Part shown: piece after piece, positions 10,301-13,300 of the stretch | How the letters are laid out: the number at the start of each line of letters is the position of its first letter | Numbering within the stretch: the stretch's first letter is position 1 | IMG/VR virus record: IMGVR_UViG_3300030110_002592 | Coordinates: 1 to 63,204 of that record | From: a virus | Lineage: Duplodnaviria > Caudoviricetes | Reading direction: 5' to 3' (one strand) | DNA: 63,204 nt | Program-made: the position numbers and the translations under genes | Notes under the pieces: generated by a model | The model's input: the letters and a program-made list of their open reading frames with translations, nothing else | The model's database searches: none | What the model was told of the DNA's origin: nothing

Positions 10301-13300
10301 TAGTTTTGGACTCAATATTTTGTTGCTGAGATTCTACTTCAGTTAAAGTTTCTACAAGCTCTAGTTCGCTAAGATTTTTTACTCCTAATGGTGTAGATGT
10401 AGTGCGTTGGTCACCTTTAAAATCTTGTAATACCAACTCCCCATCTACTTCTTCTATAACCGTTACTTGATTGGAAGGTTTTCCTTCAACTTGGACTTGT
10501 CTGTTGAAGAGTCTACCTTTAGGGGTCTTTTTGGTTTTTCTTTCGACAATCGTTGTCTTACGCGTTGGAGCAACTCTAGTTGTTCCTGTTTTGGATACTT
10601 TGCGAGTTTCAGTTTGTGTAAGGTTTTCATAAGCTTCTAGTTCTGTGATTTGTTCTTCAACCAAATCTGTTAATATATCTTTTTCTTCTTGCGAAAGTTT
10701 TTCGTCTTGTTCAATTTCAGAAAGAGTTTCGTATCCCTCATTTATCGCCGCTTCCATTTCTACATCGTTAACACTTTCTTGTGCTTTGACTTTGTTTGAA
10801 GCAATTGTAAACTTACTGTCAGGTTTAGAATATCTATTGATAGCAGTAGACTCAGGGAACTGTTGTTCGTAAAGTTTCTTAAACTCCCCTTCTATATATG
10901 TTTTAAGTTCTTCATTTATCTCCTTCTCCCTAGACTGAACTTCGCCCTCTTGACCCTCATCTTGTTGGTCTTGGAGGTCTTGCGCTTGGGCAGCTCCTCG
11001 TACTTGACCGGGTACTCCTCCTGCCATTTGCGAAACAACTCCGGGTTGTTCTTGGCTAGGTGCTTCCATTGTGCTTGACTTTTGATCGGCATCTATATTT
11101 AATTTATTATTGAACAATTGATTTACTTCGTCCGAAACTACTGACCCTGAAAAATCAGACTTTATTAAAGTAGCTATCGAAGAAGCCTCTATGAAATCTT
11201 TAAATTCTTGCTCCGTAACTATTTTGCCATCGATGACATAATTAGTATCCAAAGGCTGTGTATCTATATCTACAGAAACATCTGCAGGAGCCATGTCTCC
11301 TGTAGTTACTATAGCAGCTATTTCTTTATTTATTTGAGCAATCTTAGCAGAATAAACGTTTTTATCCATATTGCTTAACTGCTCTCTAGCAGACACCAAA
11401 TTAAAAAGCCTTTTCTTTACATCTGTATTTTTAGGGTCTAAGTTTTTAGCTTCTTTATAATAAGAGTCTACAGTTTTTTTAACACCTATATTGTGTTGTA
11501 TTCTTTGGTTTTGCTCGCTGCTTATTTGACCGTCTTTTTCCATATTGCTAGACCAATTAGTTAGGTCTTCTAGACTATGGGTGTCAGTCATCATATTGTC
11601 TAAGTACTGCAGGTTGTCTGCAAGTTTTTGTTTTTCTTTTTTAGCAGATTTAAAAAAGTAACTATTAGCTAGTTGACTTCCCATTCTTTGTTTTAACCCT
11701 ACAACCCCCTCAAGCAACACTTCTTTACCCTCAAATTTCTGTCCCGATAAACCCATAGCTAATGCTTCTCCACCGGACTCTGCACCTGCGCCAAACACTA
11801 ATTGGTTTTTTACAAATGTATTTACTTTATCAGTAGCAGTTCTATTTATTACTTTACCTCCTCTAAAAAATTGCCCTGTTAAAGACGAAGCAAGCATATC
11901 TACTGCCGCAATAGCTGCCCCTCTTCTATATCCTCGCGCAGCACCTGCTTCCCAAACATCTAAATTCTGCAACATTTCTTGAGCTTGTTGGGGATCTAGT
12001 GGATCATAACCAAATTCCCTACCTACTTCAAGTATGGAGTTCCCTAGTTCAAGGGCGCCAAAGGATAATGCTACACCTGTATTCCCTCCATACACTAAAC
12101 CTGTTATAGTAGCAGGAACAGCACCTGCACCTAATGTAAAAGCGCCGCCTAAACTAGCGCCTGTTAAACCTCCGAGTCCTATTGTATAAGGAATAATATC
12201 ATTACCTACCGGTAATAGTTGAGCAAAAGTACTTGCTAATAAAGCCGGCAACAATTCTATAGGGTCACTAGCAAGAGCAGCAACAGTTTCTGACACGTTC
12301 GTAGCTTGGCCAAGTCTAAACATAGCTTCTCCCGTTCCAATCTCTTCAGCTCTTTTAAGAAATTTATTTAATTTAATTGCTGCTTTTTTTAAATCTTGTT
12401 TTTCTGCACCCTCAAATTTAAACTCTCCTAATAAAGGATCGCTAGGCATAGCAAGTTTAACCAAGCTAGTTATAGCATGGCCATTATTATAAGATTTTTC
12501 TATCTCATCAAAAAGCGTGGTAAACTGACTGTTAAATTCTTCTACCATGCCTTTTTGAAATTGCATATCTAAATAAGTATCAGCTTCTAAATATGCATCT
12601 GCTGCAACTTGAGAATTTTTTTTTGCCGCCTCTGCAGCTTTGTATAAATTAAAAAACCTCTCTTTTTCGTAAGGCGTAAACTCGCTAATCATTTCAGGAG
12701 TTACTTGGTTGTATTGAACACCAAACAAACCTAAACTTTCTTTGTTTATAATTTCTGCTTGGTTTTTTAAATTTGCATTTGCGGTAGCTGCAATATTTCT
12801 TTGGTCTTTTATTTTAGCCGCCGCTAACATATCAAACTCTTTATATGCATCTTCTAACTCAGTGTCAAAAAAGTTAATACCTAAAACTTCTCTAGACTTA
12901 TCAAAGTCAGCCTCTAAATCTTCTTTTACTTTGTCTAAGTCCGGTCTTGGTACATATATGGTTTCGCCATCCTGTTCTTTTTTTATGAATAACTCAGGGT
13001 GTTTAAGGTAATCTTTCTCACCATACTTTAAAATACTTTGACCTAAGTCTACCCTTTCTATTTTTTCAATAAGCTTTAGCTTGTCATCTATATCGTTTTG
13101 ATATTGTTGAGCTGAAAGAATAGCATTTCCATTTAACCCACGCCTATCCATAACTTCAACAAAATCTTTTTCTGCTTGTGTTGCTGCTTCGTCTAAAGGT
13201 TGGTATTCAGGCCCAAAAGCATTATCATTAATAAAAGACTTTAGTTTTCTTAACTCTTCTATACTGCCACTTTTAGTAATAGGTTGAAGGTCAATATTAA

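Follow-up and report, generated by a model that had tools for sequence, protein, structure and literature searches.

Can the gene for a giant phage virion protein harbor, in a second reading frame, a protein-coding gene of its own, and if so, which of the two frames does selection maintain? The question is raised by IMG/VR virus record IMGVR_UViG_3300030110_002592 (Duplodnaviria; Caudoviricetes), a complete 63,204-bp record with 35.6% GC, the whole of which is referred to here as the window. Its giant gene, 12,609 nt long (W in the comparisons below, as is its protein), contains an ATG-initiated open reading frame (ORF) of 58 codons that begins 2,866 nt into it in the +1 frame. A first-pass annotation made from the sequence had singled out this ORF, and we found it in the frame of the 4,202-amino-acid (aa) gene that had been indicated, with the peptide exactly as quoted (P0001, MPIKSQAQWKHLAKNNPELFRKWQEEYPVKYEELPKRKTSKTNKMRVKRAKFSLGRRR). 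The ORF is single copy in the window genome. We consider it very likely to be a real protein-coding gene nested in the giant virion-protein gene, and what sets it apart from chance is its homology and the recurrence of the nested layout in other contigs, not its length. The features concerned are:

1350..13958, minus strand: giant host gene, 4,202 aa, last gene of the late/structural block
10916..11092, minus strand: nested gene, 58 codons plus a TAA stop (10916-10918), in the +1 frame of the giant gene, recognized by homology
11090..11092, minus strand: ATG start of the nested gene, spanning the host codons GAT and GCC (Asp956-Ala957)
10985..11092, minus strand: conserved core of the nested gene, codons 1-36 (MPIKSQAQW...PVKYEELPK), with helices at residues 6-15 and 17-26 and then PVxYxxLP, from alignments and AlphaFold2
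10919..10984, minus strand: variable, strongly basic tail of the nested gene, codons 37-58 (RKTSKTNKMRVKRAKFSLGRRR), predicted to be disordered, with a predicted local distance difference test score (pLDDT) of 57-62

An exhaustive phmmer search with P0001 against 1.84 billion (1.84e9) representative proteins gave 28 matches at E<=1e-3, the best of which (E 5.9e-8) aligns residues 1-51 with residues 1-50 of its target. Seventeen of the matched proteins were 45-100 aa long and shared 41-56% identity with P0001 in alignments beginning at the first residue of each; the module was N-terminal in larger proteins (129-401 aa) in four matches and internal or C-terminal in six, and the remaining one (P0018) was discounted because of its repetitive sequence. 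A hidden Markov model (HMM) of the family matches P0001 at E 3e-25, and a profile search added 26 further small proteins, all without a Pfam domain or an informative name. These unnamed viral 'hypothetical proteins' of about 45-70 aa (P0003-P0049) share with P0001 the start, four residues that are invariant in family alignments A1 and A2 (P2, S5, L34 and P35) and the basic tail. M1 and P17 are present at 90% or more, and the core reads MP[IF][KR]S[KQ]xQW..[LM]A...P.[LI][LF]..W..E.PV.[YF]..LP, followed by the tail. P0001 has all the conserved columns (M1, P2, S5, P17, P28-V29, L34-P35, with aromatics at positions 9 and 23) and, with 58 aa and its basic C-terminus, lies within the family size range (about 40-75 aa). 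The expectation that the peptide would belong to a stand-alone MP[IF]KS-type family was therefore confirmed. The P0003-P0049 records are called free-standing (verified only for the fetched loci, or L-numbers, L005, L058, L071 and L073/L074), whereas the window copy is nested and unannotated.

The nested product is predicted by AlphaFold2 (42-row alignment) to be a two-helix hairpin spanning residues 6-26 (helices 6-15 and 17-26, pLDDT 88-94 over residues 1-30), followed by an extended PVxYxxLP segment and a disordered basic tail; its net charge, counted from the sequence, is about +12. Foldseek comparison of this model with PDB and BFVD gave no match at E<=1e-3. Pfam and PHROGs scans of P0001 returned nothing significant, tblastn against 50,697 phage records hit 10 records, all at E of at least 1, and blastn of the 2 kb around the nested site left it unmatched among phage records. 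A word-index protein search found nothing for P0001 at near lengths or for profile A2 at longer lengths, which is weak evidence. In the ESM Atlas, P0001 adjoins clusters of viral 'hypothetical proteins' of 52-59 aa with 58-253 members, none with a Pfam family. One further cluster, with 15% DUF3008 members (score 0.80), is the sole computed link to DUF3008 (PF11450), which we take to be a group of small MPxKSxAQ-type proteins resembling P0001 in size, in the MPxKS..Q N-terminus and in a late LP motif followed by basic residues. P0001 was unmatched by the DUF3008 Pfam model at E<=10, as were other family members (16 plus 6 at E<=1, 10 at E<=0.1). The small basic phage proteins of phrog_2423 did not match the window DNA at E<=10 and were likewise unlisted for P0001 against PHROGs, while phrog_1375 (function unknown) matches 5 of 42 family members (best E 7.6e-6) and 1 of 10, P0001 and the window being unmatched.

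It could be argued that the open +1 frame and the similarity are side effects of a host-frame motif or of composition, given that the linker is of low complexity and that comparable open stretches (52-65 codons) occur in alternative frames elsewhere in the giant gene. Against this stand the start-to-start alignment at E 5.9e-8 in so large a database, the stops that free-standing family genes have in the host-equivalent frame (three each in L005 and L073), an apparent host-frame ratio of nonsynonymous to synonymous substitution (dN/dS) above 1 (see below), and the failure of the remaining 13 alternative-frame ORFs (25 aa or longer) of the giant gene to match anything in the fetched loci. Homology, the substitution pattern and the unbiased loci described below effectively refute a chance ORF already, and we give it almost no credence.

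How widespread is the nested layout? Loci were fetched in four ways, i.e. by similarity to P0001, by a start-motif DNA pattern (ATG required), by an internal pattern (KWQ[KQ]E.PV) and from one free-standing homologue. The family HMM found 36 copies, corresponding to 33 distinct contigs after the repeat fetches L006, L013 and L025 were dropped. In 29 of the 33, window included, a long same-strand ORF (169-4,210 codons) contains the family ORF in its +1 frame, and in no contig is the family ORF in the +2 frame alone. Nesting in long late-gene ORFs is thus the commonest arrangement of the family, alongside free-standing and fused forms. The other four are not nested, L005 and L058 being clearly free-standing and L007 and L028 divergent. 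All six family members found by the internal pattern, which is independent of the start, are nested and begin with ATG. The host ORFs form at least seven BLAST groups with no flanking domain common to different groups, and the 1,059-aa and neighboring ORFs beside the free-standing L058 copy are dissimilar to all of them. One host group is a gene of 166-406 aa located directly after the portal gene, in contigs related to the window phage (terminase 65%, portal 49% identical). Its nested copies (L003:3693-3821, also L004, L011, L014, L026 and L027) are 40-43 aa long, do not have W23 and occupy the +1 frame of an acidic N-terminal linker; the window homologue of this host gene (27905..29005) contains no nested ORF.

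In further comparisons the giant gene itself was used as bait, and for these its modular layout is needed:

11259..13601, minus strand: conserved N-terminal module (about residues 120-900), from phmmer against the giant ORFs of relatives and alignment A4
10914..11258, minus strand: host-frame linker (about residues 900-1015), rich in Q, G, E, A and P, between the N-terminal module and the variable middle; it holds the overlap
1479..5261, minus strand: conserved C-terminal module (residues 2900-4160), used for fetching relatives independently of the nested gene

The C-terminal module shares 26-27% identity (E about 1e-100) with its counterparts in the L015 and L017 hosts, and 25.7% with UOF82488.1, a 3,859-aa coding sequence of GenBank record MW202828.1 annotated as 'reticulocyte binding/rhoptry protein'. 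At codon 865 of the latter there is an unannotated 43-aa MPFKS-type ORF in the +1 frame (L029:6032-6160, MPFKSKQQMKACYAQNNPKWDCKKWAKETPKPKSLPKKVRRQK). With alignment A3 of the C-terminal module we then obtained an unbiased sample of 24 further viral loci at 25-31% identity (near-duplicates: L062/63, L064/65, L066/72, L073/74 and L075/80). Half of them (12) carry a nested +1 family ORF at giant codon 598-1156 (E 2.5e-5 to 7e-13), one (L059) has a degenerate copy with a marginal E of 0.75, and in three (L071, L073, L074) the family gene is free-standing and starts 3-16 nt past the giant stop. Linkage to the giant gene, nested or directly downstream, was found in 15-16 of the 23 assessable unbiased loci, which suggests a shared role. 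Distant relatives of the giant gene retain both the +1 ATG and an uninterrupted +1 frame, in line with the first-pass annotation.

Which of the two frames is under selection can be read from the substitutions. When 16 nested copies were compared pairwise over the 36-codon core (120 pairs), p-distances averaged 0.34, 0.25 and 0.53 at positions 1, 2 and 3 of the small frame. The least variable site is therefore the host-frame third position, the opposite of what is expected under host-frame selection. Small-frame dN/dS (Nei-Gojobori) ranges from 0.02 to 0.62, in 8 of 12 pairs with estimable dS, and host-frame dN/dS from 0.35 to 7.7 (11 pairs; L002/L023 undefined), being at least 1.4 except in the near-identical L030/L037. 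Between W and L015, the proportions of nonsynonymous (pN) and synonymous (pS) differences are 0.18 and saturated in the small frame, versus 0.44 and 0.08 in the host frame. In the unbiased set (10 pairs), pN was below pS in the small frame in 10 of 10 pairs, and pN equalled or exceeded pS in the host frame in 8 of 10. Even among the near-identical L018-L022 (n=5), the only two polymorphic overlap sites are both small-frame third positions, silent in the small protein and amino-acid changing in the giant protein. A near-identical strain contig of the window phage shows 13 differences over 10528-11600 and zero within 10916-11092, where about 2 would be expected (P about 0.12, not significant). 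The substitution patterns among nested copies indicate purifying selection on the small frame, while the host frame merely stays open as a disordered linker.

The linker reads ...NIDADQKSSTMEAPSQEQPG... in the host frame (a longer stretch being ...NIDADQKSSTMEAPSQEQPGVVSQMAGG...), with a net charge of -5 over 45 aa. The 'DAxQKxST' appearance of this frame had been proposed to be a by-product of the nested gene, and this is what we see. Selection acts on the small frame only; in the host frame, DA[IN][QK][EK]xST is found in nested relatives, and nested MPFKS copies give DAIQ[EK]xST, as had been predicted. The small frame is ancestral, and the giant gene reads it as a linker. 'Overprinted', the term used at first, is misleading, because the small gene belongs to a wider family and it is the linker reading that is derived.

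Could the small gene nevertheless be an inert relic, captured or read through at a gene fusion and surviving as linker DNA that is no longer translated? Translation of the nested gene is derived from sequence, the host frame requires just an open, disordered linker, the variant of the L003 group has lost W23 and in some members also the LP motif, and the L059 copy is degenerate. However, a relic would drift toward host-frame codon preferences, and here the low small-frame dN/dS persists between long-diverged homologous hosts: W, L015 and L017 share 59-61% identity in the small protein and about 27% in the giant protein. The small-frame second positions (host third positions) are the least variable, and conservation extends to the start codon, to the place of the stop and to the unstructured state of the leader. 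A relic is on this evidence very improbable, and a gene still maintained for its product is the reading we retain.

Dual coding has also left its mark on base composition. The GC content of the nested ORF is 0.52-0.53, compared to 0.355 for the giant gene, which places it in the top 0.05% of the 177-nt stretches of the window. By codon position, the overlap has GC values of 0.41/0.37/0.78 when read in the small frame and 0.79/0.41/0.38 when read in the host frame, against 0.48/0.33/0.26 for the giant gene overall. When the 58 codons were randomly recoded with synonymous codons following the phage codon usage, none of 200,000 trials kept the host frame open, and 8.2 stops arose on average. Twenty-six codons precede a codon beginning with AA, AG or GA, and 0 of these 26 end in T, versus 35% T among giant-gene third positions; overall, the small-frame third positions are G29, C17, A9 and T3. 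The host frame is kept open because T is excluded from small-frame third positions at these sites, and the GC spike results from this constraint together with a linker preference for codons starting with G or C. The sharp GC rise reported in the first-pass annotation is hence a signature of dual coding and no sign of foreign DNA: a foreign origin of the patch was rejected in favor of the dual-coding constraint.

Turning to expression, the sequence preceding the nested ATG is as follows:

11093..11122, minus strand: leader of the nested gene, A/T-rich, with little predicted structure and a TAG at 11093-11095

The TAG lies immediately before the ATG, so that the small frame is closed just upstream. 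The leader (TTGTTCAATAATAAATTAAATATAG) is 88% A+T, at the 99th percentile of the 25-nt stretches of the host gene, compared to an average of 79% for the 34 long ORFs of the phage. Among those 34 gene starts, a Shine-Dalgarno motif occurs in 1, A is found at -12 in 82% and at -3 in 71%, and A is also strong at -11; the nested leader has A at -11 to -13, and its likeness to the phage's own starts, already pointed out in the first-pass annotation, holds. The 25 nt upstream of nested copies are A-rich in general (77th-99.8th percentile of the host gene, 18 loci). From -30 to +20 the minimum free energy in W is -0.9 kcal/mol, versus a gene median of -5.4, with 96% of the gene windows more structured, and in all 27 loci tested this region ranks with the least structured windows of its host gene (81st-99th percentile, median 96th). 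Four of the five nested copies with a GC content of at least 0.54 have a Shine-Dalgarno-like AAGG(A/AG) 5-8 nt upstream. Starts with no Shine-Dalgarno motif and an A-rich leader (A at -12, -11 and -3) are typical of Bacteroidota hosts, and such starts in this phage fit its PHROG matches to 'virion structural protein' families.

Visual inspection revealed no internal promoter motif for the nested gene, which is therefore assumed to be transcribed as part of the giant gene's late mRNA. The nested gene would then be translated from that mRNA by independent internal initiation at its own ATG, a start of the A/T-rich, little-structured, Shine-Dalgarno-less type that the phage uses for its own genes. 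Alternatively, ribosomes might reach the small frame by a +1/-2 frameshift and produce, besides the full-length protein, a shorter one of roughly 1,010 aa composed of the N-terminal module, the small domain and its tail. The W junction does contain CAA AAG / C AAA AGT, the nested ORF always comes after the N-terminal module, and the small module is also known from in-frame fusions (P0025, 764 aa, and P0012, P0027, P0024, P0006, P0015, P0026 and P0028). In P0025, P0012 and P0027 the fusion is C-terminal, and in P0025 the module follows a body weakly like the N-terminal part of giant proteins (22% identity, E 4e-9 to L023); blastp of P0025 against the window giant protein was not significant. 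The module is fused to a variety of partners (DUF5661, zinc ribbons, an ATPase with an intein), lying N-terminal to DUF5661 and other domains, and some of these fusions could be frameshift or assembly artefacts.

The start codon bears directly on this alternative. ATG occupies model position 1 in 35 of the 36 family copies (GTG in L058), while in-frame fused forms have N or another residue there, which argues for independent initiation over frameshifting. Moreover, a stop 0-12 codons upstream closes the small frame in AT-rich nested copies (directly adjacent in W), no slippery motif is common to the upstream sequences inspected, the starts show typical initiation features including Shine-Dalgarno-like motifs in GC-rich hosts, and the same gene is free-standing past the giant stop in L071 and L073/L074. 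The programmed frameshift of G/GT-type tail chaperones requires a slippery site and no start of its own, whereas the nested gene has a conserved ATG and no shared motif. Recoding thus appears quite unlikely, and internal initiation remains the preferred route.

Several observations weigh against a nested gene, or at least against its generality. In length alone the ORF is unremarkable, as elsewhere in the giant gene the +1 frame is open over 60, 57 and 52 codons and the +2 frame over 65. The free-standing L058 and L028 copies, like the nested ones, have no stop in the host-equivalent frame, and nested copies in unrelated hosts may have diverged in part before they became nested. The family has no Pfam entry and no significant structural match, and its link to phrog_1375 is weak. 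We found no RNA run carrying the nested-gene stretch, its transcription and translation being deduced from sequence. Most loci were ascertained via the small ORF, only MW202828.1 and the internal-pattern and C-terminal-module fetches being free of this bias. Within the unbiased sample, 8 of the 24 loci had no family match in the fetched DNA (one of them, L061, with a giant gene truncated at its 5' end), so the gene is not universal. Finally, the family nests also in hosts with no detectable similarity to the giant protein, including a scaffold-like gene, which weakens the case for a specific partnership with the giant protein.

The genes upstream of the giant gene encode terminase, portal and virion structural proteins. 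The giant protein itself has no Pfam match, and a search for relatives with 800 aa of the host frame found none; by phmmer, its N-terminal module matches 12 of 20 giant ORFs of relatives (E 1e-40 to 7e-61), in alignments that end at W residues 890-952. In six relatives with both the N-terminal module and the nested ORF, the latter begins 58-92 codons past the end of the module, compared to 45-65 in W. Within this module, residues about 555-640 (window 11700-12300, minus strand) form a long hydrophobic stretch rich in Gly, Ala and Leu (LLPALLASTFAQLLPVGN...GLGGLTGASLGGAFTLGAGAVP...) that looks membrane-active, as would be expected of an ejection or pore-forming protein. The giant ORFs of L009 and L012 are homologous at both ends (48-50% identity), but their middle parts have nothing in common apart from a 43-aa island, the nested gene, which appears from this comparison to survive module shuffling. 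A second +1-frame ATG ORF, Lys-rich and 55 aa long (window 10463-10630, minus strand), lies inside the giant gene 285 nt downstream of the nested gene; it was unmatched in every fetched locus and has no support as a gene. There is no small gene downstream of the window's giant gene, the next genes converging from the opposite strand. In L064, L065, L067, L069, L075 and L080, where the nested family is absent, another small basic ORF is found past the giant stop (L067:13392-13541, L069:13745-13900, L075:12236-12382, L064:12453-12632). It begins with MPF[KR]K[VI]GKNK, follows the pattern MPF[KR]K[VI]GKNKNVSPSG..FTD.QVK.YYAT.GF and ends in a basic tail; it has no Pfam or PHROG match and may be an analogue of the nested gene.

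What the small protein might do is suggested mainly by its composition and location. According to the first-pass annotation it may be a DNA-binding protein, an antidote or a chaperone. The basic tail suggests nucleic-acid binding. It is conceivable, if doubtful, that the protein acts with the giant protein or elsewhere inside the head, e.g. with the tail binding nucleic acid and the hairpin docking on a partner; nesting, or placement right after the giant gene, would couple its synthesis to that of the giant protein. A structure-complex prediction of the small protein with the N-terminal module (alignments A2 and A4) scored 0.00 and, being without controls, carries no weight either way. More broadly, we put forward only tentatively that the protein represents a widespread, unannotated class of small basic proteins of uncultured phages, normally encoded in the +1 frame of disordered linkers within genes for giant virion or ejection proteins and other head-interior genes. 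It would be an obligate partner of the head-interior or ejection machinery, and nesting itself would be selected. The small protein could then be, for example, a packaging adaptor or a charge-neutralizing chaperone for the giant protein or for DNA; nesting would fix the amount and time of its synthesis to those of the giant gene and prevent recombination from separating the two, in a gene that has moved among hosts (giant gene, scaffold-like gene, free-standing).

Because gene callers forbid long same-strand overlaps, most genomes that encode this conserved family, MW202828.1 included, do not show it in their annotation. Our search of the literature, covering main texts outside subscription journals, turned up no description of the family or of small genes nested in giant phage virion genes. 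The locus provides a clean example of dual coding in double-stranded DNA phages, with codon choice visibly bent to serve both frames, and points to an unstudied component, possibly a part of what abundant marine and freshwater phages carry inside the head or use for ejection. A single base change would remove the nested start and leave the giant protein unaltered.

Among known systems, the nearest published analogue would be the embedded Rz/Rz1 spanin layout of the lambda type, in which Rz1 occupies the +1 frame of Rz. As in that pair, the inner gene is small, is read in the +1 frame and is contained entirely in a larger gene on the same strand, relatives have the two genes separate, both products would be late, and the inner gene tends to escape standard annotation. 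The parts available to us of two papers on two-component spanins describe embedded, overlapped and separated Rz/Rz1 architectures (PMC5295617, PMC6139136). The resemblance is one of layout, since the 58-aa product, unlike Rz1, is not a lysis protein and has neither a signal peptide nor a lipobox, its sequence being free of Cys and of any hydrophobic N-terminal segment. The host, unlike Rz, is a virion gene of 2,000-4,200 aa or a scaffold-like gene and not an i-spanin, the overlap falls in a disordered linker, and the nested and giant products are not known to bind each other. The giant host also recalls the polyvalent proteins of phages, being multi-domain with variable middle domains between conserved ends. 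The work on those proteins concerns in-frame domains, at least in the portion available to us, where the word 'overprint' did not turn up (PMC5512222). In the Rpn 'genes within genes', as far as the accessible part of the report goes, a small product is separately translated from a larger gene in the same frame (PMC10327210), whereas the nested gene described here uses a different frame, so that its two products share no sequence.

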